Source: Acidobacteriota bacterium
GTDB taxonomy: Bacteria > Acidobacteriota > CAIWXX01
Direction of reading: 5' to 3'
NCBI GenBank assembly: GCA_040755995.1
Contig: JBFMAF010000033.1
Location: 1 to 64,000 of the forward strand
Length of the DNA: 64,000 bases
The notes beneath the pieces were generated by a model that saw only the letters and a program-made list of their open reading frames with translations, made no database searches and was not told the DNA's origin. Numbering within the stretch: position 1 is the stretch's first letter; each line of letters opens with the position of its first letter. Below, in pieces: positions 31,862-52,408 of the stretch. Position numbers and translations under genes: made by a program.

Positions 31862-31917
31862 TGCAAAATGCAGAATGCAAAATGCGAAGTGCAAAATGCA
31901 AAGTGCAAGATGCAAGG
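31862..31917. repeat. Eight tandem heptamers (TGCRRRR)
   Basis: TGCAAAA TGCAGAA TGCAAAA TGCGAAG TGCAAAA TGCAAAG TGCAAGA TGCAAGG, starting directly after the VWA stop codon. Confidence 0.85.
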
Positions 31918-35744: not shown

Positions 35745-38540
35745 CTACCTCACAGTGAAGCGATATGTCTTCGAGCGCGTGCGGCCGTGCTCGTTGTAAG
35801 CAGTCACACGCCAGTAGTAGGTGGTGCGGCGGTTCAGCCCCTTGAGCTCGTACTCAGTGCCGGTGATTCCGTTCACCTCTGCGAAGATCTTGCCCTTGCG
35901 TGAGCCTTCGCGCACTATCAGGTCGTATCCGTCGACACAGGAGCTTTGCCACTTGAGAGTCACCGTCGTGCGTGTTCTGCCGTGGTTCGCCGGGGAGATG
36001 AGCTCGGGCTTGTCCGGCGCGTCTTCGCACTCTCCGGGCGCGAGCGCCTTCGTCGGGCCCGCCCACTCGGATCCGCCCTCGTTCCTGACAGCCTCGACCT
36101 TGTAGTAGTAGGTCTCCGATGCGGTGATCGTCGTGTCGTTGAACGAGTAAGTCGCACCCTGGTGGGAGCTGCCTGTGGACTCGATGAGGTCGGCGTTCAA
36201 CTTGGTATACTCGCCGTTCCGGCTCGTGCTGCGCCATACGTTGAATCCGAGCACGTCCCTCTCCGTTTGAGTCTTCCATTCGACGTCGACCTGGGTTGGG
36301 CCGACGATCGTTGCCGTGAGCGATACGATGGTGGCAACAGTAGGTCCGTTCAGAGTCCATGTGCCGTTGCCGCTCACGCGCTTTACTACGATATAGCAGC
36401 CTTCGGTGGTGGATGCCGTATAGTCGATGCTTTCGTCGGTCCCCGACCCCGCGTTGGTGCTCGACGCTCGTATGACCGGGTTGCCTTTCGAATCGGGCGT
36501 GGCGGAATAGACGTACAGGTCGAAATCGGCCGTGGCCGGGACGTCCAATGTCAACACGGCCCTGTGCCCGGAGGTTAGGCTCGAGTACCTCCCCCAAGCG
36601 CGCCGGTCAAAGGCTCCGCCGTTGGTGGAGCCGTTGATGCTGCTTCCCGTGTACTGAAGCATCACCGCTTCGATCGCCGCGTCGGGATTGATCATCCCGT
36701 AGCCTTCGAATCTGTCCTTGGGCGTTGCCGCTCTGCCGAGGGTGGGATCAGAGCCCGAGCTTGCTTCACGGTTCGCGTTGCTCTCTGTCGCAGTGGCACA
36801 CAGGAGCATCTTGACCAGCAGGGGATGGGTGCTGGAGCTGAAACTCCAGGTCAAGCCCTTCTGCTGCAGCGCGTCAATCACAAGGGCGGCAGCACCTGCA
36901 GCGAATGGAGATGCCATGGAGGTTCCCTTGATGTTGTAATAGTCGTGCGCCGCCACGTCGGAGAAGCTGGTAGTCAACGCGTCGGCGTCGTTCGAATCCA
37001 CCGACAGTATGAGGGCGTAGTAGTCGGATCCTCCGGGCGCCATGACGTCCGGCTTGTTGTCCTCATCGGCTTCGGGGCTAAGAAAACCGCTGCTGGTGTA
37101 TTCGGTCAGCTCGTTAAGGGTATTGCCTGCGGCGACCGTGAGCGCCTTGGCTGCCCTTCCAGGATCATCCACGAGATTTGCGTTCGCAGTCCCGGGCCCA
37201 TCGTTTCCGGCGGAACAGACGGCCACTATGCCGTTATCGACCATCGTATTCACCTTGGTGCGCTGTGTAGTGCTGATGCCCGGGTCGCCGATCACCCCGA
37301 TGCTCATGTTGACTACCTTGATGTTGTGGGTGGTGCGCTGAGTCACCACATCGTCCATCGCCTCTCCGATATCGACGCCGCTTCCAGTTCCGGCGTTGGT
37401 GAACACCTTGAACCCCGCCCATCGGCAAGACGGCGCGACACCGCTCAAGGCGTTGAACCCATCTCCGACGACGGAGTAAGTCACCGTGTGAGCGCCGGCC
37501 CAATACGTATTGGTTCCGTTGGAATTCACCGTGCCCGTGTAGTGTGTCCCAGATGCTGCCGTGAAGTTGCTGGTCCAAGTGAGGGGCGAACTCCCTGATG
37601 TGCCGCTGATGAGAGTGTAGGGAGCGGCGTCGCCGTCAGGGTCGTACCGATGACGGACAAGGGTGGTCCCACCGCCGGCCCAGGTACCGACTGTCGTCCA
37701 TGCGATGCTTGAGCCCGCTGAGAGATGGATCGGGCTGGGTGAGTAGTACCCAGACGGTAAGCCGGTCCAATCGCCACTGTCGGTGAATCGAAGCTGTGTC
37801 GGCGTGGCGGCGATGGCGGCGCCGGTGCCCAGGGCGATGCCGGTGACATGGGTCCCATGCTGGATTATGTCCCTGGGATTCGCCTCGGCATCCGACGTCC
37901 AGTCCACCCAGTACTCCTGGCGTCCGTTGAGGTCGGTGTGTGAATCGTCGATGCCCGTGTCGATAACGCCTATGGTGATGTTCGAGTTGCCGTCGAAGCC
38001 GGCAGCACTTCCAGCGAAGCCCGATACCCAAACGGGCCTGACTCGGCCGTTCTGGGTTGCTTCCTTCAGGTGCAGCTCCGCTGGATGATCGCCGACCACC
38101 GCGACCAGATTCGCTCCCATGGCGGCGGGCAGTTGTTCCACGCTGCCGATGGCGATCCGGCCGTTCCAGCCGTAGCTGACGGATTGGTAGATATGCTCGA
38201 TGACACCGCCCATGGCAGTGAACCTGTTGATCTGATCCTGTGTGATCTGTTCCGCGAAGACGAGCTCGATACGGGCGATTTCCGCCAGTGCCTGAGTGCG
38301 TTCAGCGGGCTGTGCGAGCTTTCTCGCTGCGGAGAGCTTGTCATCTATCAGATCGTCGATCTTGTTGAGGTCCCGGTCGTCAGGCCCCAGGTCGGCGATA
38401 ATCGGTCTCACCGCGGGCTCGGGCGGAGCGACCAGTTCTTCAGGAGGCAGCGCCCGGTCAGCTGCCTGACCGACTAACGTGCCCGCGGAAATCAGAAATG
38501 AGAATGCGACAACGAAGAAGACGATTCGACGCTTGGTCAT
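35745..38540 (-). CDS. Secreted S8 (subtilisin-like) serine peptidase with PPC-like and FN3-like C-terminal domains
   Basis: Signal peptide; VIDTG (Asp), HGTHV (His), SAGNDG, GTSMASP (Ser); DFDLYVY; TYYWRV. Confidence 0.9.
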   Translation of the reverse strand: MTKRRIVFFVVAFSFLISAGTLVGQAADRALPPEELVAPPEPAVRPIIADLGPDDRDLNKIDDLIDDKLSAARKLAQPAERTQALAEIARIELVFAEQITQDQINRFTAMGGVIEHIYQSVSYGWNGRIAIGSVEQLPAAMGANLVAVVGDHPAELHLKEATQNGRVRPVWVSGFAGSAAGFDGNSNITIGVIDTGIDDSHTDLNGRQEYWVDWTSDAEANPRDIIQHGTHVTGIALGTGAAIAATPTQLRFTDSGDWTGLPSGYYSPSPIHLSAGSSIAWTTVGTWAGGGTTLVRHRYDPDGDAAPYTLISGTSGSSPLTWTSNFTAASGTHYTGTVNSNGTNTYWAGAHTVTYSVVGDGFNALSGVAPSCRWAGFKVFTNAGTGSGVDIGEAMDDVVTQRTTHNIKVVNMSIGVIGDPGISTTQRTKVNTMVDNGIVAVCSAGNDGPGTANANLVDDPGRAAKALTVAAGNTLNELTEYTSSGFLSPEADEDNKPDVMAPGGSDYYALILSVDSNDADALTTSFSDVAAHDYYNIKGTSMASPFAAGAAALVIDALQQKGLTWSFSSSTHPLLVKMLLCATATESNANREASSGSDPTLGRAATPKDRFEGYGMINPDAAIEAVMLQYTGSSINGSTNGGAFDRRAWGRYSSLTSGHRAVLTLDVPATADFDLYVYSATPDSKGNPVIRASSTNAGSGTDESIDYTASTTEGCYIVVKRVSGNGTWTLNGPTVATIVSLTATIVGPTQVDVEWKTQTERDVLGFNVWRSTSRNGEYTKLNADLIESTGSSHQGATYSFNDTTITASETYYYKVEAVRNEGGSEWAGPTKALAPGECEDAPDKPELISPANHGRTRTTVTLKWQSSCVDGYDLIVREGSRKGKIFAEVNGITGTEYELKGLNRRTTYYWRVTAYNEHGRTRSKTYRFTVR

Positions 38541-38775
38541 GCCCCTCACCCTCCTGTCGGAAGCCCGTGACCGATGGCCGGAGAACGCATGTCTTCCAGT
38601 CGATGCGGTCGCCCGTTTTTTCGATCAACACTGTACTTATTTAAGAGCAATGGGCCGCACCAAGTCAAGTTCTGTTTCAGTGCTTCATGTGCGTGGCATG
38701 TTTGTGATCTATGTGTGATAGACTGCCGGTCGGTGCGCGGGGGAGCTAGCCCGGCGGCCTCGCGCAGAAATGGGT

Positions 38776-39030
38776 ATGGCGAACTCTTACACTACCAGAG
38801 AAATCGGCTCCGAATTGCTTCTGTATGATGCCGAGACTGATGAGGTGCACGTTCTCAATGCCACCGCGCGGCTGGTTTACGAATTGCACCAGATGGGGAG
38901 CACGCCGGCCCAGATTGGAGAGGTTCTCAGGAGTCGGTTCTCCCTGGGCGAAGAAGTCGACGTCCTCGGCGACGTCGTGGGTTGCCTCGACGAGCTGCGG
39001 AAAAAGGGCATGATCGCGTCCGAGGCGTAG
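38776..39030 (+). CDS. PqqD-family protein (RiPP recognition element)
   Basis: E.LLYD.....VHVLNATA..VYEL......I...L..RF......DV...L.EL...GMI. Confidence 0.85.
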   Translation: MANSYTTREIGSELLLYDAETDEVHVLNATARLVYELHQMGSTPAQIGEVLRSRFSLGEEVDVLGDVVGCLDELRKKGMIASEA

Positions 39031-39080
39031 GATCGCGGCCCCGCGAGACTACTGCCGCGCCGGCCCGGCGCCGAGGTCGA

Positions 39081-39542
39081 TCAGGAGCTGAGAGCCCTGC
39101 GGCAGCGGCTTGCTGAAGCCAGCGCTCCAGCCCACACTAGGCTCATCAGTGCAAGCATCGGATTCAACCATCTCCACGGTATGGCCCGCATCCTGAGTAT
39201 CCGGTCTCCCCTGTGGATGGCATCGACCGTGCCGACTACGCGATCTGCGTCCACCCAGCTCCACCCGTGCTGATTATCTCCCCTCTGGCAGACGCGCAGC
39301 GCGCCGCTCGTTCTCGATTTTCGGACGAGCCGGTGGACAACGAGGCTCCCATCGTTCCAGAAGGCGAGGATATCGCCTCTGCTAGGCTCCTCGGGATGCA
39401 CCAGCCGGATGTCCACGTGGTCGCCCGGCCGGATCAGCGGCCACATGCTCCGCCCCGCGACAGGCACCGAGACCATCCTCTGCGCGTCTCGATAGCTCCG
39501 CAGAATGGGCAGCGCGTACTGAACCGGGCTCTCTTCGCGCAT
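39081..39542 (-). CDS. S24/S26 signal-peptidase-like protein (Ser-His type)
   Basis: GRSMWPLI.PGD, GDI, VVHRL, RGDN. Confidence 0.85.
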   Translation of the reverse strand: MREESPVQYALPILRSYRDAQRMVSVPVAGRSMWPLIRPGDHVDIRLVHPEEPSRGDILAFWNDGSLVVHRLVRKSRTSGALRVCQRGDNQHGWSWVDADRVVGTVDAIHRGDRILRMRAIPWRWLNPMLALMSLVWAGALASASRCRRALSS

Positions 39543-39547
39543 CCTAC

Positions 39548-42367
39548 CTAGTCCCTGCGCTTGACGGCCAGCTCGGTGGCCGTGTCTCCGAGAAGCGTGA
39601 AAGTCTTCACCAGGTCCTCGGTGGCACCTCGAGCGTACGCCTTGATCCTCGATTGCGTCGTGATCTGGCCGAGGCCCTTCCGCCCCTGTTCGAATATCGA
39701 CGAGAAGACCTCTTCTCCGAGGAAGCTGTGTTCCCAGGAGTACCCCAGACCTGTAGGCGCGAAGCTCGCGACGGCGCCCTTGCTGTGCGCCACCACGAAT
39801 TCCTCTCCGAGCGAGTCGTAGTACGGATTGGAGAAGTACCCGTTCAGGCAGTCCAGGGTCATCACGAAGGTGAGGTGATCGTTGTTCTGGAGCGATGCCA
39901 CGTCGGCCGAATCGAAAAGCCCCTCTCCCGTCCAGATCGTGACATTGGCATGCCCGACATAGTTAGTGATCACCACCCCTGAGTCGATATTCGCGATGAT
40001 ATCCTGTGTCGCCTGAGCCGTCGACGAGTATGAGCCCAGATACACCCTGCGCGGCTCATATCGAGAGGGCAAGAGGCCGATCAGCGTCTCGTTGATCTGC
40101 TCGAAAACGGACTCGTAGTTGTCTGCGGCGAAGAGCGCTGTCTTTGGCATCGAATCCGCGGCGGCCTGATAGCCGGATACCTTTCGCACGAGCGAATCGG
40201 CCGAAGAAGCGTCCTTGGCGGACAATCTTCCGATGAACATGTCCGGGAGCGAGTCGTTTCCGTCCACCGCGACATACCAGTTGTCATCGGGTGTTATGCC
40301 CAGCTCGGAGGTGATGGACAGATGCACCGGCACCAAGTTCTTGGCGCCCGTGAGGAAGTAGTCCCTGTAGTCGGTGTTCGCGTCCCCGAGTAGAACCACG
40401 TGGGTTGGCGCGGGCTTTCTCCACCTGCGATAAGCATTGGCGAGGAAATCCTTGATGGCCTGTGGATTGAAGATGCCATAGTTGAACTCGTTGTAGATGT
40501 CATCGACGACCACCGACACGGTTCTCAGCCCCTGTTTCTTCCGCAGCTCGCACAACCGATCTGCTGCCGACTTGAAGCCGCGGGGCGATATCACGATGTA
40601 GTCCGCGCTGTTCCTCCGCGACTTCAAGTTCGTCGCGCGCCAGAATGTGACCTCGTCCGGAACCCGCCGGCTCGCCTGCGCAGCCGCCCAATATCTCTTC
40701 TGTCCCGCGAGGTCTGTCTCGAACGATACCTTGGACGCCCGGCCCGCCGCTCCAATCTGCAGCCCAGTCACCTCTTTGACGTCACGGGGGTCGCTGATGT
40801 CGAAAACCGTGGCGTCCGGACTGAGGTTGGCAACTTCGAGGAGATACCGTCCTGCGCCTTCGACCGTAAACGCCAACTGATCTCCGACCGCCTCAAAGCG
40901 CCGTTTGTATACAACCTCGATCCAGTTGAGCAGAACCTGATCAGTCGACGCACCGGGGTCCTTGATGAGCTGAACAGTCAGCGTATTGGCCCCACCGAGC
41001 AGCAACGCCGAGGTCGCGGTCATCTCCTGAGTGTGGGCTATGGTGCCAGCCCAGTATTCGTCGCTCAACAGCGTTCCGTTCAGCGACACCTGGGTATGGT
41101 GCACACCCGTGCTGTAGCCCCGATAGCAGACCCGCACGATTGCCCCGTAGGCTTCAGCGGCCGGCCCAGGTACTTGAAGACCGTAATTCTTCGTCGCCTG
41201 CGACGTGATTCGTTCCCAGAACCAGTAGTCCTCTTCGGTCGCCCCCGGCGTGCCTTCCCACACCCTGTGATTCTCTTCGACGTGAAGCGTGTCCCAGAAG
41301 GAGCCCAACGGCGTGCCGAGGCCCGTCACAGAGCCGTCCACTGTGTCCATCCTGGTTCCGGAATTCCCACCCCATTGGAGCCAATAGACGTTCGTGTCCG
41401 TGAATTGATCGTCCAGTCTCTCGGCGTAGAACTCCAGGTAGTCCCCGTTCCGGAACTTGCTCGAAGACCGGCTCACCAGCTTGAATGCCACCTCGTTCCC
41501 CTTGTTGGTGAGGCGGAAACTGGAAGGATTGATGCGCCTGGCGATTACGCCAGCGTTCCTGAGATCTCCATAGCCAACTCTGTAGATACCGGCCTGCTTG
41601 ACTCCGATCTTCAGCGCGTCGGCGAGCGGCCGCGACTCGTCTGTCTCGGAGCCCGGTTCGAGACCGGGCGCCGGCGCGGAGAGATCCGCGGCATCGTAAT
41701 TGATCACAGCATCATCCAGCAGCTGCTCAAATGCGCCATCGGCGCTCGGCGTTGGCGCGGCAGCAGGCTGGTGCGGCCCGGGGCCGAACGAGACTTCCAC
41801 TAGCATTCTCTGCGACACGCGGAGCTCCCTCGTGGATGGATTCCACTGGATGGGGTACATGGTCACCCTGCGAACGGGCACCCCGCGCAGCCATTGCACA
41901 TCCGAGACATCTGCAGTCTTTCCCGGGTAGAAATCCGGCTGGCCATATACCGATGCGTCTCGCACATGCTCTGTAAGCACGGCGCCCTTCTCACCCAGCC
42001 TCAGGCGCGGTACCGAGCCGACCTCCTGATCGGGGTAGGACTCATGGCCCTGCTCGACAACGTGCAGCACAGCCTCGCTATCGGGCGGGACCCGGATCAG
42101 GACGCTTCGTACGGGGAGGTCGGGATGGCCGGGTGTGGCCACCGAAGCCCAGCCCTCTACTCGGACCTTCTGATACGGGCTTCCGCCGGCGTCATAGAGA
42201 GTGTCTGATTCGACGCGCGGCGTCGCAAGCTCGATCGTCAATCCCGATTCTGTCTCCGAGAGCAGCCGCACGTCTTCATCGGCGAGCAGAGGATACGCAA
42301 CCATCGCAGCCGCTGCCAGCTGAGCAACCGCGAGCGTCTTGAGATTATCGATTCGCACATGTGTCAT
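39548..42367 (-). CDS. C25 (gingipain-like) cysteine peptidase with propeptide
   Basis: Signal peptide; PG.PDLP propeptide; ADYIVI, IYNEF, HVVLLGD, PDMFIGRL, NYVGH (His), LDCLNG (Cys), LLGD. Confidence 0.85.
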   Translation of the reverse strand: MTHVRIDNLKTLAVAQLAAAAMVAYPLLADEDVRLLSETESGLTIELATPRVESDTLYDAGGSPYQKVRVEGWASVATPGHPDLPVRSVLIRVPPDSEAVLHVVEQGHESYPDQEVGSVPRLRLGEKGAVLTEHVRDASVYGQPDFYPGKTADVSDVQWLRGVPVRRVTMYPIQWNPSTRELRVSQRMLVEVSFGPGPHQPAAAPTPSADGAFEQLLDDAVINYDAADLSAPAPGLEPGSETDESRPLADALKIGVKQAGIYRVGYGDLRNAGVIARRINPSSFRLTNKGNEVAFKLVSRSSSKFRNGDYLEFYAERLDDQFTDTNVYWLQWGGNSGTRMDTVDGSVTGLGTPLGSFWDTLHVEENHRVWEGTPGATEEDYWFWERITSQATKNYGLQVPGPAAEAYGAIVRVCYRGYSTGVHHTQVSLNGTLLSDEYWAGTIAHTQEMTATSALLLGGANTLTVQLIKDPGASTDQVLLNWIEVVYKRRFEAVGDQLAFTVEGAGRYLLEVANLSPDATVFDISDPRDVKEVTGLQIGAAGRASKVSFETDLAGQKRYWAAAQASRRVPDEVTFWRATNLKSRRNSADYIVISPRGFKSAADRLCELRKKQGLRTVSVVVDDIYNEFNYGIFNPQAIKDFLANAYRRWRKPAPTHVVLLGDANTDYRDYFLTGAKNLVPVHLSITSELGITPDDNWYVAVDGNDSLPDMFIGRLSAKDASSADSLVRKVSGYQAAADSMPKTALFAADNYESVFEQINETLIGLLPSRYEPRRVYLGSYSSTAQATQDIIANIDSGVVITNYVGHANVTIWTGEGLFDSADVASLQNNDHLTFVMTLDCLNGYFSNPYYDSLGEEFVVAHSKGAVASFAPTGLGYSWEHSFLGEEVFSSIFEQGRKGLGQITTQSRIKAYARGATEDLVKTFTLLGDTATELAVKRRD

Positions 42368-43514
42368 GACTGTCCATCCAATCCAGGGTACTCAGTACTG
42401 ATTCTACTTCAAGATCAAGCCTGCCGGGCGAGAGCCGGTAGCTCCGGACGCCCTCCAGCAGAGCGTTCAGCTCCATGAAAAGCTTGCCGGGCTTGCGCCC
42501 ATCACCTGTGAAGTGGGCCGCAGTCTCCCTCTTCATCTCGCGAAGCAGATAGAAGCAAGCCTCGTCGTTCCGCATCCGAGACAGCACCGGCATTCGGTCG
42601 AAGTCGTGAGCACTACTGGTGACTCGATGAGCGTCCCAGATGTCATCTCTGTGTCTTTCCAGAATCGCGGAAATCCGCCTCGTCGACTCCGGACTCCGGG
42701 CGTAGCGTATCTGATACTCGTTTCCCCATTCGTCCCTTTCGACGACAATCACATGGTCCAGCGCGGCGAGCTCGGAGAGAATCGGCGCTTCCTTCCCGAT
42801 TCGAATTGCCATTCGAAGCTCTTCCTCACGCGCCGGCTCCTCAGCCGGCATGAGACAGATCAGCGATCTCAAACGGCAGGCCTCACGCACGAGCGGCAGC
42901 TCCAGCTCGTCGGGTTTCATGGGTGTCTTGTCACGGCGAGCGGCAGACTCATCTGGCACCCTGCTTCCGCGGTCGCCGGCGATCACATCCCTCGACCTTA
43001 TCCAAAGCCCTCGCGGAAACGGATGCACCAATCGCGTCTTCCTGTTGATCGGGGCGAAATCGTCCGAGAGGAAACCGAACCCGTTCTCCACAAGCCTCAA
43101 GGCCAGGGTTGTCTTGCCCGATCCGGGCGGCCCGCTGATCGCGATCGCCTCGCGTTCCCTCGCTACTACTGCTGCATGCAAGATGAGGTAATCGGAAGCA
43201 GCGCCCAGGACCGCCCTGCTGATGTTCTGGAATACGTAGGCCGCAGGGAAAGGCCGCCCGTCTCTCGGGCAGGGCGTTCCGTTGATCTTGAGGAATGCGG
43301 CGCTCGGGGACCGTTTCGATTCGAACGACAGCGAAATCTGAGGCTCGCCAGAGAGGCACGGCAGCGCACAGAAGCCGTACTCCTGATCGAGCCGCTCCAG
43401 GAGGGGAACCGAATCTGAGCGGATCTCGACTGAGACGTCCAAAACCCGGTAACACCTTGACGCCCCACTGCGCTCAGAAGGCGTCGGCCGAGCCTCGCCT
43501 GATACAGCGCGCAT
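42345..43514 (-). CDS. HPr kinase-related P-loop protein
   Basis: LHAAVV, GPPGSGKTT, FLSDD, PFPR. Confidence 0.8.
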   Translation of the reverse strand: MRAVSGEARPTPSERSGASRCYRVLDVSVEIRSDSVPLLERLDQEYGFCALPCLSGEPQISLSFESKRSPSAAFLKINGTPCPRDGRPFPAAYVFQNISRAVLGAASDYLILHAAVVAREREAIAISGPPGSGKTTLALRLVENGFGFLSDDFAPINRKTRLVHPFPRGLWIRSRDVIAGDRGSRVPDESAARRDKTPMKPDELELPLVREACRLRSLICLMPAEEPAREEELRMAIRIGKEAPILSELAALDHVIVVERDEWGNEYQIRYARSPESTRRISAILERHRDDIWDAHRVTSSAHDFDRMPVLSRMRNDEACFYLLREMKRETAAHFTGDGRKPGKLFMELNALLEGVRSYRLSPGRLDLEVESVLSTLDWMDSHDTCANR

Positions 43515-43516
43515 GC

Positions 43517-44875
43517 CTAGTCCGCCGAAGACGCGCGATCGAACTTGTCGAGGATCCGGTCAAACGCGAGCTGGTAGGCCCGCCTGCGATAGTTGCAGAA
43601 GGCGTCAGTTTCGAAGATTGTCCCGTGGTTGTCCAGCGCCTGTCCCATGCATCCCGCCTGGCACAAGTTCTTCCACGTACACGGCCGGCACCTTTCTATG
43701 GTATTCCGACGGCTAGCGAGTGCCTTGCAGGTCTCCATCATCTTCGGTGAACGAATCAAGCGGGAGGTGCCGTCATCGATCACGTTTCCCAGCTTGAATT
43801 CGTCCCGCATCATCAGCACGCAAGGGAACGCATCACTATCGACCCCGATGACCAGGGAGTTGCCGACCGGGCACCAGATCCCATCGCTTGTGTCGGGTTG
43901 GGGCATCTTCAAGATGAAGCCGCTCAAGCCGCAAGTCACCGCCACAGAGCAGGCCGCGTCTCTCGTACCAGGCCGGCTGAGGTCGAACAGACTCTCATAG
44001 TCTTCGATCTGCATAGAAGCCCCCACCGATTGCCAATGCTTCTCAGCATTCCCGACCTTCCTCAGGGGGAGGAATCTGACTCTCGGGATCCCGAGACGTT
44101 CTGCCAGGCCGACGATACGCTTCTGGTCATGGAGATTCTGCTTCATGACGGTCGCGGCCAGCGTGATCATATCTCCCAGGCCGGCATTCTGGAGACTTTC
44201 CAGCGCCTGCATTGTTCGCTTGAAACTGCCGCGGCCCCGGATGGCATCGTTTGTCTCTTCGTCCGATCCGTCGAGACTTACCTGGATGGCCGGCCTGATC
44301 TCACCGGCAAGGAAGGAGGCCCAATCTTCGTCGATCTGAGTACCGTTCGTGAGTATCTGTATGCCTGTCTTCCCCACCGCGTGTTTCAGGATAGGTACGA
44401 TATCAGGATGGAGCAGCGGTTCGCCTCCGCTCAGCGTAACGAGCTCGCCTCCCTCCTCCGCGAGCTCGTCGATCAGTCTGATGACCACGGCCGCCGGAAG
44501 GTCGGCATTCGAACGGGACGGATAGTAGCAATGCTGGCATGGAAGGTTGCACCGTGTGGTCAGATGGATGAAGAGAGCCAGCAGACTTGGTGACCTCGAT
44601 GGCGCAGTCGTGTCGCAAGGCGTGAAGCCACACCTTTCGAGTTGCAAGGCAACCGCTCGCACATCTTGGTGTGCCACGTCTGGAGGCAACTCGTACCTGT
44701 CGCTCAAGCAGAGAGCCACGTCCTCCGGCGGCTCGCCGCGCATGAGTCGCTGCGCGATCTCTGTCGCGCTGTGATTGGCGACAAACCACTCCGGGCGATG
44801 CGGATGCAGAATGACCTCGCTCCCGCCTCGTCTCTCGCTCCCCGTCCGAGGCGGATAGAGCAGAGGGCGCGCCAT
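43517..44875 (-). CDS. Radical SAM/SPASM peptide maturase with N-terminal RRE-like domain
   Basis: CNLPCQHC, SGGEP, TNG, SLDG; SPASM CPVG...PC...CRPC....LCQAGC...C; N-terminal N.SA.EI...L..RY......DV...L; ATG 44875 preferred. Confidence 0.9.
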   Translation of the reverse strand: MARPLLYPPRTGSERRGGSEVILHPHRPEWFVANHSATEIAQRLMRGEPPEDVALCLSDRYELPPDVAHQDVRAVALQLERCGFTPCDTTAPSRSPSLLALFIHLTTRCNLPCQHCYYPSRSNADLPAAVVIRLIDELAEEGGELVTLSGGEPLLHPDIVPILKHAVGKTGIQILTNGTQIDEDWASFLAGEIRPAIQVSLDGSDEETNDAIRGRGSFKRTMQALESLQNAGLGDMITLAATVMKQNLHDQKRIVGLAERLGIPRVRFLPLRKVGNAEKHWQSVGASMQIEDYESLFDLSRPGTRDAACSVAVTCGLSGFILKMPQPDTSDGIWCPVGNSLVIGVDSDAFPCVLMMRDEFKLGNVIDDGTSRLIRSPKMMETCKALASRRNTIERCRPCTWKNLCQAGCMGQALDNHGTIFETDAFCNYRRRAYQLAFDRILDKFDRASSAD

Positions 44876-44880
44876 GGAGC

Positions 44881-45096
44881 TCAACCGGGCCTGGGTCTCC
44901 GCTTGTACTTTCGCTGATAGGGTGTAGCAGGGTTGAGTGTGCAGGTCGGAGAGCCGGTGCATGCCAGGGCAGGTCCGATCTGCTCCAGGATCTGCTCGCT
45001 CGTGTACGTTACGATTCTCGGTGCGACATACTTGGGCGGGTCCTGCTCGATCTCTTTTTCAGCATGAGTGCATTCACGCGGATCATCTGGAATCAT
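44881..45096 (-). CDS. Putative RiPP precursor peptide (71 aa)
   Basis: GGGGAGGG RBS; YVAPRI matches the YxxPx(L/I) RRE-binding leader motif; Cys/Thr/Ser core CTGSPTCT; stop 5 nt before the radical SAM start. Confidence 0.75.
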   Translation of the reverse strand: MIPDDPRECTHAEKEIEQDPPKYVAPRIVTYTSEQILEQIGPALACTGSPTCTLNPATPYQRKYKRRPRPG

Positions 45097-45483: not shown

Positions 45484-46704
45484 ATGGCAGGTCCAGGTCC
45501 AGTGGGCACCAAACCCGTCGTGGTCCCGCCGGCCACCCAGCAATCAGGCGCGGTCACCAAGGCAGGGACGAAGAGCACATCGCCATTCACTCTACCGGTC
45601 CTCGACGAGACGAAGCTGGGGAAAAGGATCGACGAGGCATTCAGTCGATTCGACCTGAGTGGGCTGCAACGGACCAAATCGAGCGCCTCCTCCCGGGGGT
45701 CTCAGGCCGTTTCAAACACCAAGGTGGAGGACAATGCCGGTCCCGAACGCACCGTCACGGTGAGGGACAGGAGAGGCAACGCCTTCCAGATCGAGTTCAC
45801 ACCGAACCCAAAGAGCAGCAAACGAATCATCGGCGACCACGCGCTCTCGAGGAACGCGATGATCTCGATGATACAGAAAAAGGGAAAAATGGCCGAATGG
45901 GACAAGCTCGACAAACACGACATCAACGGCGTCAAGAAGTTCATGGACCGCATGAATCTGTCGACCGAGGACAAGGTCAAGTTCGTCAACAACTACCTCA
46001 CGAGTTTCTACAATCATCCTGGCAAAGACATAGCATGGAGGGGCAACCCCCCTCTCCAGGACGCCATCAACGCAGTTCCCGTGGACAAACAGGGCAGAAA
46101 GTACCTGGACTGCGAAGGCTACACCAGACTCGCCGGACACCTCCTCGGAGAATCGAAGGTCAACCACTATGCTCTCGACGCCGAGGGGAGTGGAGGCCGC
46201 GATCACCAGGTGGCAGTCTTCCGCGAGGGTGGCAAAGCCTACGTGATCAACAATAATCAGATCACCAAGGTGGATGCTTCTAACTCAGACGCGGACGCAA
46301 TACGCGAGGCGCATCCGGGCCACAAGGACATCGTGCGCGATACATCCGGCCCGATGGCTTATGGCACCGAGATGTACAAGAAGGGCCAGAGCATCCACGG
46401 CTCAATCCCACATGCGCACGTCGACCGAATCGTCGACCCGAAGACCATGATCGGCCAGGTCAACGACCCGAGACGGGGCAGCTACCACATCAAGATCTCG
46501 GTCGATCCCGGGACGGGAAGACTGAGCAGGAAGATGGACCTCCGAGCCGGCAACGAGCTCAGGGACACGGCCGGCAATACGATCACCATCACCAAGAGAA
46601 ATCCAGATGGCACGTACCAGGCCATGAAAGAAGACAGCCGCGGGCGGTTCACACAGGTGTGCGTAACCGTTACTCCGAAGGGCGACAATTGGAGCTGGCG
46701 TTAG
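45484..46704 (+). CDS. Hypothetical protein with possible transglutaminase/papain-like catalytic triad
   Basis: AGGAGG RBS; low-complexity N-terminus; YLDCEGY...DHQVAVF...YVINN. Confidence 0.65.
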   Translation: MAGPGPVGTKPVVVPPATQQSGAVTKAGTKSTSPFTLPVLDETKLGKRIDEAFSRFDLSGLQRTKSSASSRGSQAVSNTKVEDNAGPERTVTVRDRRGNAFQIEFTPNPKSSKRIIGDHALSRNAMISMIQKKGKMAEWDKLDKHDINGVKKFMDRMNLSTEDKVKFVNNYLTSFYNHPGKDIAWRGNPPLQDAINAVPVDKQGRKYLDCEGYTRLAGHLLGESKVNHYALDAEGSGGRDHQVAVFREGGKAYVINNNQITKVDASNSDADAIREAHPGHKDIVRDTSGPMAYGTEMYKKGQSIHGSIPHAHVDRIVDPKTMIGQVNDPRRGSYHIKISVDPGTGRLSRKMDLRAGNELRDTAGNTITITKRNPDGTYQAMKEDSRGRFTQVCVTVTPKGDNWSWR

Positions 46705-50860: not shown

Positions 50861-52408
50861 TCACTTGACGAGGAATTGCACGGCATTGCTCACGATGCCC
50901 GCCACGGTGACGGTGACCATCGTGTTCCCCTTCCGGCACTTCCTTGGGATCGTCACCGTGAGCTTCGTGGTTCTGGCCCTCGTGACTGCGGCCGTGTACC
51001 TGCCGAACTTCACAACGTTGCCGCTGCTCACTGCGGAGAACCCGCTGCCGTTGATCGTGGCCTGCGAGCCCGGCTTCGAGGTCTTCGAACGAACGGATGT
51101 GATCGTGGGGCCTGTCGATGGCCCGGGCTGCAGTTCCCATACGTGCACCAGAGGCCGGTCGTTGTCGACCAAGGGCTCGATCACGTAGAGCAGACCGCGG
51201 TCGCGGTCGAATGCCGTTGCGCCGAGGTGGTACTTCTGTTGTGTCGATGCGATGTGGTAGAGGTACGGGTCGATGTTGAGCGTGGCGTAGGGCTGGGGCT
51301 GCCAGGTCTCCATACGTCCCTGGACCACGGAAGCGAGGTCGGCCGGATCGTAGAAGAGTAACTGGGCGACGAAGCCCGTCGACCACCAGCCCCGCTGGCA
51401 ATCGGGAGGCCACGGAGGCTCGGATGTGCCGTCGGCGCATCCGTACCAGCAGCTGCCGGTACCCTTGGTTCCGGCGAAAAGCACGGCGGACTTTCCGCCG
51501 GCTGTCAGCCAGGCTCCACCGGTCCACTCGTCGGAGTGATGGTAGCTGTTCATAGACGGCGGGTTTGACTGGTAAGCGTTGCCGTACAGGAGTAGAGGCT
51601 GCGCTGGAAGAGTGGTGTTGGGAGGAGGCGGATTGCCCTGATTCCATGGCCCGATAGCGAACAGAGCCGGTCCCTGCGCTCCTTGACCCCCGTCGCGAAA
51701 GCGGCCTGTAGCGAGCGACCGGCCGGGCGTGTAGGCCGCAGCCCATTCGTGCGGGATTGCGAATAGATAGTCACCCGTGACGTAGTTCCAGTAGTTGCCG
51801 ACACGCCATGCCCCGGCGGACTGTGGGCTTGAAAGATTCAGGTTGCACCATCCGTGCGACGGACTTGTGGCTCCCTCGTCCAGATGCGGCGCCCAGGCGA
51901 AATAGAGTTTGCCTGCAGTCTGCGAACCCTGGGCCGGCAGATACTCCAGCCCCACGCGAGGCATTTCCATATCGCCGAAGAGCCCCCCGCGAATGTCGGC
52001 AAAGGCCTGCAGCGTCCCGGCCGTCGGAAGCTGATTGAGGTCCTTGGCCGGCGACACGACTGGAACCGGAATGCTGATTTCCGATACGCGCTGGTACCAG
52101 TCATGACCCGTGCCGAAGAGCGATCCCGGGTAGCCATCGGACGGTCCGGACGGATCGCCGCCGGGGTAGTAGGTCAACGCCGATGACCAGTTGCTCCACT
52201 CCCATCCCTCGCCCGCCGGATCTTGAGGCAGGCGGAACGCGCCCTGGTATACAAGCTCGGTCGGGTAGATGAGGTTGCCGGCTGCTGACCGCGTGTCTGC
52301 CGCCGGCGCGAGTGCCGAGCCGGCCAGCAGCGCCAGAACTACAGTGCCGGGCAGAAGTGCCCCCCTGCGGACGCTTTTCGTGAGACCTGCAAGTCTGGTC
52401 ACCAGCAT
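50861..52408 (-). CDS. Secreted protein with C-terminal IPT/TIG domain
   Basis: GGAGG RBS; signal peptide; PTITSV...PG..ATINGSGF...V.FG...LTVTIP...VTVTV. Confidence 0.8.
   Translation of the reverse strand: MLVTRLAGLTKSVRRGALLPGTVVLALLAGSALAPAADTRSAAGNLIYPTELVYQGAFRLPQDPAGEGWEWSNWSSALTYYPGGDPSGPSDGYPGSLFGTGHDWYQRVSEISIPVPVVSPAKDLNQLPTAGTLQAFADIRGGLFGDMEMPRVGLEYLPAQGSQTAGKLYFAWAPHLDEGATSPSHGWCNLNLSSPQSAGAWRVGNYWNYVTGDYLFAIPHEWAAAYTPGRSLATGRFRDGGQGAQGPALFAIGPWNQGNPPPPNTTLPAQPLLLYGNAYQSNPPSMNSYHHSDEWTGGAWLTAGGKSAVLFAGTKGTGSCWYGCADGTSEPPWPPDCQRGWWSTGFVAQLLFYDPADLASVVQGRMETWQPQPYATLNIDPYLYHIASTQQKYHLGATAFDRDRGLLYVIEPLVDNDRPLVHVWELQPGPSTGPTITSVRSKTSKPGSQATINGSGFSAVSSGNVVKFGRYTAAVTRARTTKLTVTIPRKCRKGNTMVTVTVAGIVSNAVQFLVK

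Follow-up and report, generated by a model that had tools for sequence, protein, structure and literature searches.

Two described systems come closest to the locus considered here. The linear polyphosphorylated peptide (LPP) pathway of Bacillota, described in 2026, comprises LppA, LppB, LppK, LppS, LppD and LppN; in the accessible text of that report, experiments show that LppK polyphosphorylates Ser3 and that LppS cuts only together with a recognition element (RRE) for RiPPs, peptides made by the ribosome and modified after translation (PMC13381572). According to the accessible parts of two further papers, the sites at which PorU cuts its cargo read PT/GI or X/(GSA)(VLI), and the enzyme attaches this cargo to aminoacyl (seryl, glycyl, alanyl) sugars of lipopolysaccharide (PMC4560394, PMC11969387), and its signature Arg722 lies 32 residues after the Cys (PMC4560394). 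In the lasso peptide pseudomycoidin, PsmN is needed for the placing of hexoses on phosphoserine (accessible text of PMC6993621). Here we analyze a 64,000-nucleotide stretch of an Acidobacteriota genome (GCA_040755995.1, contig JBFMAF010000033.1, positions 1 to 64,000 of the forward strand; hereafter the window), in which positions 35745..45096 encode a RiPP precursor, a radical S-adenosylmethionine (SAM)/SPASM enzyme, an HprK-like kinase, a C25 protease, an S26-type peptidase, a PqqD-family protein and an S8 protease. The C25 protein is best read as a PorU-like processing enzyme for secreted proteins that bear an unnamed domain, here called the tail, and the peptide very probably belongs to the same C25-tail system. 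That the locus is a peptide-dependent protein-anchoring system, with the S8 protease as one cargo, has in our estimate slightly less than an even chance of being right.

C25 proteases, tail domains and precursors occur together

The C25 protein begins with a hydrophobic signal, followed by a C25 propeptide, PorU-type N-domains and the catalytic domain, and has no C-terminal type IX secretion system (T9SS) signal. It matches PorU (6ZA2) over profile positions 5–693 of 695 (E 4.6e-44), whereas gingipains match the catalytic part only; PorU 6ZA2 is also the best C25 match by fold (E 1e-33, TM 0.57). The His/Cys dyad is invariant in all 24 C25 relatives. Against the model NF033707 the protein reaches 283 of 420 bits, and the end of the protein falls at position 736 of the 1095 in the model, so that the match stops there too.

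A fold search with the tail of the S8 protease listed FN3 domains, the best of which aligned over 100 residues with a Z of 12.1 and an rmsd of 2.3. Elsewhere the tail follows passengers that bear signal peptides and are unrelated to each other, and it is fused upstream of many C25 proteins; by eye, the ends that follow it vary between membrane anchors, dockerin-like repeats, one T9SS C-terminal domain (CTD) or nothing. Over 63 junctions the tail starts with a P-T/L-L/A-V consensus (P 33, T 36, L/A 43, V 47), and the residue after the junction Thr is Leu in 30, Ala in 13, Val in 5 and Ser in 3. The source genome encodes a second tail protein on contig C35. We considered the tail as a T9SS CTD and rejected it: no CTD model matches the window tail and no CTD appears among 50 fold-search rows, a fold result that is compatible with kinship. 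The single CTD match is a separate domain behind the tail in locus L075.

Tail and C25 domains are closely associated across genomes. Among 199 genomes of the host phylum, taken besides the source genome and the unpublished G025, 57 have both, 8 the tail alone, 29 C25 alone and 105 neither. C25 is thus present in 57 of 65 tail genomes, and in 37 of 37 when the tail match is held to E<1e-15, against a base rate of 86/199. In a second phylum (150 genomes besides the seed), C25 occurs in seven of eight tail genomes versus 11/150 overall. At least 46 of 127 tail matches, in 27 genomes, lie no more than 900 nt upstream of one of 122 C25 matches taken from those listed, with up to five candidates scored per genome. 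Single passenger-tail-C25 reading frames were confirmed in L098-L104 and L020. A model of the C25-tail complex scored 0.80 versus 0.01 for the best of three controls, on a scale whose mark is reached by 116 of 157 solved pairs and 2 of 215 mismatched pairs, and likeness to solved protease complexes may raise such a score. The runs share at least 92% of contacts, partner pLDDT is at least 87, and tail residues 3–4 contact the catalytic Cys and His. As a prediction, the model supports binding of the tail by C25. We consider it probable that C25 processes tail-bearing proteins.

The precursor is tied to the same pair. All 17 precursor genomes of the host phylum have C25 and 16 have a tail (base rate 65/199), and three precursor genomes of the second phylum all have C25 together with 13–24 tails each. 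In genome G341 three paralogs run, in one frame, from signal and passenger through the tail, a Cys-Gly pair, a membrane helix and a basic stretch into a whole precursor. Of 15 places with a precursor that were fetched in three genomes, 3 have this layout (frames read in the DNA); it recurs in 7 of 11 long proteins matched by the precursor profile and in 3 of the best 150 precursor representatives, one of which matches L129. At least 12 distinct fusion sequences fall into two groups that are ∼40% alike over their last 160 residues and possibly have one origin. Because a whole precursor is fused to tail-bearing proteins elsewhere, the peptide would most likely be a hook that fastens them to the surface. 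Separate precursor genes also adjoin tails: of seven copies in G233, three neighbour tail genes at a distance from the enzymes, one lies in the enzyme cluster and three with neither in the fetched stretch, and in loci L090 and L093 tail and precursor genes alternate. Other precursor types, ending in Ser, sit with fused passenger-tail-C25 genes and are also found on source contigs C44 and C50.

Several related arrangements were seen alongside. The C44 cassette (L001:7030-15844) contains S26, PqqD, a Ser-ended precursor, radical SAM and kinase genes, and a 1258-aa AgmC-like passenger fused to C25, with a tail-like stretch by eye that the tail profile did not score. A third cassette, at the contig end C50:1-2600, has S26, kinase, PqqD, a Ser-ended precursor with WxxP and a split-looking radical SAM gene; C41:3100-3720 is a partial duplicate of it. 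In P0128, P0129, P0135 and G009:C60:472-816 the tail runs straight into a clipped precursor lacking YxxP, which may reflect a slip in the assembly or a tail gene that recombined with the precursor gene beside it; the first three were not counted as fusions. P0138 was rejected as a repeat artefact.

Locus, precursor and maturation enzymes

The window lies on contig C33 of a 7.7 Mb source genome that is 99.84% complete. A preliminary description made from the sequence alone had reported seven genes, five of them in a packed minus-strand operon, together with a convergent PqqD gene and an adjacent S8 gene, and had seen neither a lasso cyclase nor a transporter among them. We located all seven open reading frames (ORFs) (Table 1), and the coordinates, Pfam and NCBIfam domains and domain scans of 35745..45096 bear this account out. 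From precursor to S26, the minus-strand genes are spaced or overlap by less than 25 nt; the PqqD gene converges with the S26 gene and diverges from the S8 gene. Inspection of the sequences finds the catalytic residues kept in S26, kinase, C25 and S8. In an NCBIfam scan, radical SAM, kinase, C25, S26 and PqqD proteins each pass no curated family model. A promoter and terminator scan gave matches at chance level only.

Table 1. Features of the locus, by position in the window
Feature	Position	Strand	Remarks
Secreted S8 protease, 934 aa	35745..38549	-	Likely start 38540; Asp197, His231, Ser544; read as C25 cargo
Last FN3-like domain of S8, after the tail	35745..35978	-	Similar-looking ends behind other tails and behind some C25 proteins (by eye)
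S8 tail domain, residues 736-838	36036..36344	-	Unnamed FN3-like beta-sandwich, ∼100 aa
Predicted C25 cut region P736-T737-V738-A739, passenger/tail junction	36333..36344	-	From complex model, junction counts and PorU sites
Stand-alone PqqD-family RRE, 86 aa	38770..39030	+	PF05402 above cut-off
Archaeal/ER-type signal-peptidase-like (S24/S26) protein, 153 aa	39081..39542	-	Ser32-His70-Asp89; lacks an N-terminal membrane anchor
Exported PorU-like C25 cysteine protease, 939 aa	39548..42367	-	Propeptide_C25 and Peptidase_C25; His806, Cys840
HprK-like kinase, 389 aa	42345..43514	-	His113, Walker A 128-136, Asp pair 151-152
Radical SAM/SPASM enzyme with fused RRE, 452 aa	43517..44875	-	Likely start 44875, ORF open from 44962; Pfam PqqD, Radical_SAM and SPASM
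Precursor peptide, 71 aa	44881..45096	-	GGAG ribosome site; no Pfam or NCBIfam family

The gene set is conserved in related loci. We fetched 80 of these through the radical SAM enzyme alone, many of them short; they contain the precursor in 46, kinase in 43, C25 in 34, S26 in 44, PqqD in 17, a tail protein in 22 and a nucleotidyltransferase in 15. In a stricter subset of 23 loci of at least 9 kb, from which 20 loci of one assembly were excluded, the counts are precursor 21, kinase 21, C25 20, S26 18, PqqD 13, tail protein 13 and nucleotidyltransferase 10. A genome-collection scan with a single radical SAM query returned one locus. Recovery of the precursor in 46 of 80 loci, by a profile of seven relatives, indicates that the small ORF is not a chance one, and the conserved precursor that the preliminary description had proposed to look for in syntenic loci is there. 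The S8 catalytic domain occurs in none of the 80 loci or of the subset, and S8 was rejected as a maturation enzyme; because the tail is found in 22, S8 is best read as cargo. The proposed functional tie to secreted proteases accordingly stands in the form of a link to S8 through its tail, and falls for proteases as a class. A close nucleotidyltransferase of the source genome is on contig C12 (E 1.3e-73). By eye, C12:5700-16000 holds a lasso-like set amid glycosyltransferases (PqqD, an asparagine-synthetase-like protein, a kinase and a B2-like protein); it includes a nucleotidyltransferase close to the cassette type, and no precursor was identified in it.

The precursor contains an RRE motif (Y23-x-x-P26-x-I28), an acidic helix, a G41-P-A-x-A45 segment and a core from about C46 that includes T47 and a second Cys at position 52; unusually, it also has an Arg/Lys-rich extension at its C terminus. 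The leader motif had been given as YxxPxL; the motif is present, with Ile in the last position. Across 42 distinct copies, Tyr, Gly, Pro and Cys never vary and Cys follows Tyr at a spacing of 23 residues; within the leader motif, Tyr is kept in 42/42 and the YxxP Pro in 41/42. A search of 1.84 billion representatives yielded 552 precursor clusters at E ≤0.001, and the cluster atlas holds only unnamed clusters for precursor and tail alike. Among 148 scored representatives the core Cys is kept in 129, position -1 to it is A/T/S/G in 145 and position -3 is A/V/G/I in all 148. The leader consensus of the related loci ends GPAxAC, followed by S/T. Most cores have 9–12 residues, and that of the window has 26 with a basic end. 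Arg/aromatic-rich extensions are a minority feature (7/148 by simple count; window 44881-44930, L138-L140, P0002, P0003), and one precursor copy of G233 lacks the Cys.

Signal peptidases cut behind small residues at -3 and -1. The Pro at -4, Ala at -3 and small residue at -1 of the precursor match this rule, and a cut here would free a core beginning with Cys. We think this A-x-A/T site somewhat the better candidate; a cut after G-P-A, which would place Cys at +3 like Ser3 of LPP, is a serious if less favoured alternative. A lipoprotein reading of the AxAC motif was rejected, the free precursor having no hydrophobic stretch (best 19-residue hydropathy 0.79). Formylglycine chemistry, suggested by the sulfatase-motif-like consensus core C-S-P, was lowered: the Asp is absent and Pro stands at +2 in only 60/148.

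The maturation enzymes are likewise well conserved. The radical SAM CxxxCxxC motif and seven SPASM Cys are invariant in 60 of 60 relatives, and two further Cys are kept in 56 and 55; solved relatives are only remote (E 1e-33 to 1e-28). Judged from sequence, the product would most likely be a thioether formed from the conserved Cys. The kinase, with conserved His, Walker A and Asp, has TIGR04352 as its best model (E 2e-16), far under cut-off. Ser32, His70 and Asp89 of S26 are conserved in at least 90% of 29 sequences; its nearest solved structure is SEC11, and by analogy with LppS it is predicted to be an RRE-dependent leader peptidase. The parts named in the preliminary description (an RRE, a radical SAM/SPASM enzyme, a kinase and a leader peptidase of S26 type) are thus found with conserved domains, and the accessible text of PMC13381572 demonstrates the logic of RRE, S26 and kinase for LPP. 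The cross-link and phosphate on the peptide are predictions.

Other genes of the window deserve mention. A 406-aa ORF of no family (45484-46704, plus strand) diverges from the precursor and has a weak paralog on C19; its Cys...His-x-Val pattern suggests a papain-like or transglutaminase-like fold. The C-terminal IPT/TIG domains of secreted proteins at 50861-52408 and at C50:5014-7194 are paralogous, their last strand reading S-x-x-F-x-V-K, and may be a further tag for export or binding that these proteins have in common. A short tandem repeat at 31862-31910, between vWA and TonB genes, reads as QNAKCKM-like units in several frames. By eye, several B12-type and other radical SAM genes at 3303-26786, with ketosynthase-like, acyltransferase-like and deacetylase genes, may serve lipid modification.

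Proposed mechanism and competing explanations

We tentatively propose that proteins are anchored independently of type IX secretion: a PorU-like sortase would recognise an FN3-like tail, cut it off and ligate the cargo to a surface-tied RiPP modified by the radical SAM enzyme and the kinase, made in some bacteria as the cytoplasmic end of the anchored protein itself. PqqD would bind the YxxPxI leader, as in LPP; the kinase would phosphorylate the Ser/Thr beside the conserved Cys, on which the radical SAM enzyme would act, most likely to give the thioether; and S26 would cut after A-x-A/T to free the Cys-first core. The weakest step would be the export of this core and its attachment, by way of the phosphate, to a glycan or lipid of the surface; a nucleotidyltransferase would act in trans. 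C25 would then grip the tail and cut at P-T/x-V, as modelled, and the amino end of the peptide would resolve the acyl-enzyme, as inferred from PorU. That the matured peptide is the covalent acceptor for cut cargo is a possibility to which we give a little under an even chance.

A number of observations weigh against this scheme, whose main gaps are export, the nucleotidyltransferase absent from the source locus, and the PorU signature Arg, in place of which C25 has Ser/Thr/Gly at and beside the position. An ABC-2 permease is found in 12 of 80 related loci, and its best match in the source genome reaches only E 7.6e-9. The window C25 has His-Ala where 23 of 24 relatives have His-Gly. In the accessible text on PorU the preferred residue after Thr is small, and here it is Leu in 30/63 junctions. 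The modelled tail, run with our own alignments and three non-FN3 controls, was trimmed to begin at the junction, and this artificial free end might settle into the active site; conservation of its interface residues does not exceed that of the other residues (0.565 vs 0.566). The core Cys is absent in 19/148 precursor representatives and a second Cys is absent in 47/148, and fused precursors lie on the cytoplasmic side of the membrane helix. Among the 86 C25 genomes, 22 have no S26-type match and 29 no tail, and kinship among co-occurring genomes means that the association statistics are overstated. Twenty of the 80 loci, all of one assembly, have the radical SAM gene (15 with S26) and no precursor, kinase, C25 or tail nearby, which counts against an obligate link. 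Transpeptidation and contact between peptide and C25 are proposals by analogy. Loci L025-L039, L056, L057, L060, L061 and L076 have radical SAM and S26 only, mostly (by eye) directly behind a mannose-1-phosphate guanylyltransferase-like gene.

C25 might instead be a plain hydrolase that releases or activates cargo, or might join cargo to a non-peptide acceptor, with the peptide, produced along with the cargo, controlling it as an inhibitor, an activator or a signal. This would explain the fusions, gene pairing and co-occurrence equally well and would suit both the missing Arg and the C25 genomes that lack a cassette marker; G332 has one precursor gene for 21 tail matches, and the gingipain-type propeptide kept by the source C25 would fit a regulated activity. 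We nevertheless judge it unlikely, as a one-to-one fusion with cargo fits a consumed partner better than a regulator, the N-domains are of PorU type rather than in the gingipain layout, and a small amino-terminal residue follows the predicted cut. A different separation of the parts would make the peptide a free LPP-like product, phosphorylated and cross-linked (a signal, envelope component or antagonist), with C25 and tail a separate system that travels and is regulated with it. The LPP core of RRE, S26, kinase, nucleotidyltransferase and transporter works without C25 (accessible text of PMC13381572), the radical SAM-S26 loci of one assembly lack it too, and read-through could make fusions. 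Yet the fusions retain a membrane helix and basic stretch in both divergent groups, every precursor genome of the host phylum has C25, and lone precursors adjoin tail genes; a core of ∼10 residues with only Cys-Ser/Thr conserved would also be more linker- than antibiotic-like, and we consider a free product improbable.

The place of the C25 gene inside the operon, between kinase and S26, together with the ability of cysteine proteases to ligate peptides, would also allow C25 to be a second maturase that trims or ligates the exported core, with tail proteins its regulators or unrelated passengers. The modelled placement of the tail in the C25 active site, the tail-C25 fusions of many genomes and the conserved junction motif make this very improbable.

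Comparison with described systems

RiPP pathways are usually understood to produce antibiotics, signals or cofactors; if the anchoring scheme is right, they would also have a structural role, as sources of linkers in protein anchoring. The scheme would account for C25 proteins in bacteria that appear to lack type IX secretion (C25 is present in 86 of the 199 phylum genomes), supply a function for orphan PqqD-kinase-radical SAM cassettes, and point to a way of testing why LPP and paeninodin genes sit amid polysaccharide genes, a question left open in the accessible text of PMC13381572. Such an enzyme, joining folded proteins to a short genetically encoded peptide, would also be a tool for labelling proteins. 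The tail would be an unannotated sorting domain, with up to 24 proteins per genome, and the C25-tail pair an undescribed processing system even if the peptide is only a regulator. Our literature search, whose coverage stopped short of most subscription papers and of supplementary tables, found no description of the system or of an anchoring-linker RiPP; term searches in the accessible text of PMC7470986 and PMC10288494 gave no matches.

The preliminary description had likened the locus to SynChlorMet and HPr-rel cassettes. The type of gene set does agree: HPr-rel-A/B, SynChlorMet and GeoRSP (TIGRFAM) likewise combine PqqD, an HprK-like kinase and a radical SAM/SPASM enzyme. We know of no product for any of them. 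The likeness ends at the models, all of which score under cut-off (ScmE 106 vs 400, HprK_rel_A 60 vs 200, PqqD_rel_X 30 vs 35), and none of TIGR04248-04251 and TIGR04352-04353 passes for the locus proteins. After its SPASM YPC motif, anSME has an Asp that acts as base; this position is Val here and in 45/60 relatives. With anSME (4K36), the ranthi- and sactipeptide synthases CteB (5WGG) and SkfB (6EFN), and CrpC (accessible text of PMC13692751), the enzyme shares the RRE-radical SAM-SPASM architecture and Cys-containing substrates; it differs in that all matches are remote and that the peptide here has one or two Cys only. Paeninodin and pseudomycoidin share a kinase followed by a nucleotidyltransferase-family protein and provide a precedent for a peptide-phosphate-sugar link (accessible text of PMC6993621). 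In contrast to lasso tailoring, the scanned locus proteins include no macrolactam cyclase or B2 protease, and only 1 of 42 window-type precursors has a C-terminal Ser.

LPP, as described in the accessible text of PMC13381572, shares a YxxPx-hydrophobic leader, a stand-alone RRE, an HprK-like kinase, a signal-peptidase-like Ser/His/Asp set (LppS S29/H68/D93) and a nucleotidyltransferase, the last found here in related loci. The present locus additionally encodes a radical SAM/SPASM enzyme with a fused RRE and a C25 of PorU type, and 'radical', 'SPASM', 'C25', 'PorU' and 'gingipain' do not appear in the accessible main text of that report. The LPP leader consensus HQxIxFETxxS with phospho-acceptor Ser3 contrasts with the Cys after the leader here, and its core NTP transferase and MsbA-like pump, without a ring-forming enzyme, with a locus that has neither and has a radical SAM gene. 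The C25 protein resembles PorU (PDB 6ZA2) in its N-domains, catalytic domain and His/Cys dyad, and the cargo share a C-proximal beta-sandwich behind a P-T motif, with many cargo per genome. It differs in the absence of Arg722 and a score under the NF033707 cut-off, in its signal, an FN3-like domain with varied anchors behind it in place of a terminal CTD, and in a peptide pathway where PorU, in the accessible literature, uses aminoacyl sugar acceptors. A search of the source genome for T9SS components (CTD, SprA, PorV, GldM) left three families unmatched, with the controls silent too, and every PorV-family match under cut-off. By the features compared, the locus is not a member of the LPP, PorU, SynChlorMet or lasso families; by analogy, it would work partly like LPP and probably like PorU.

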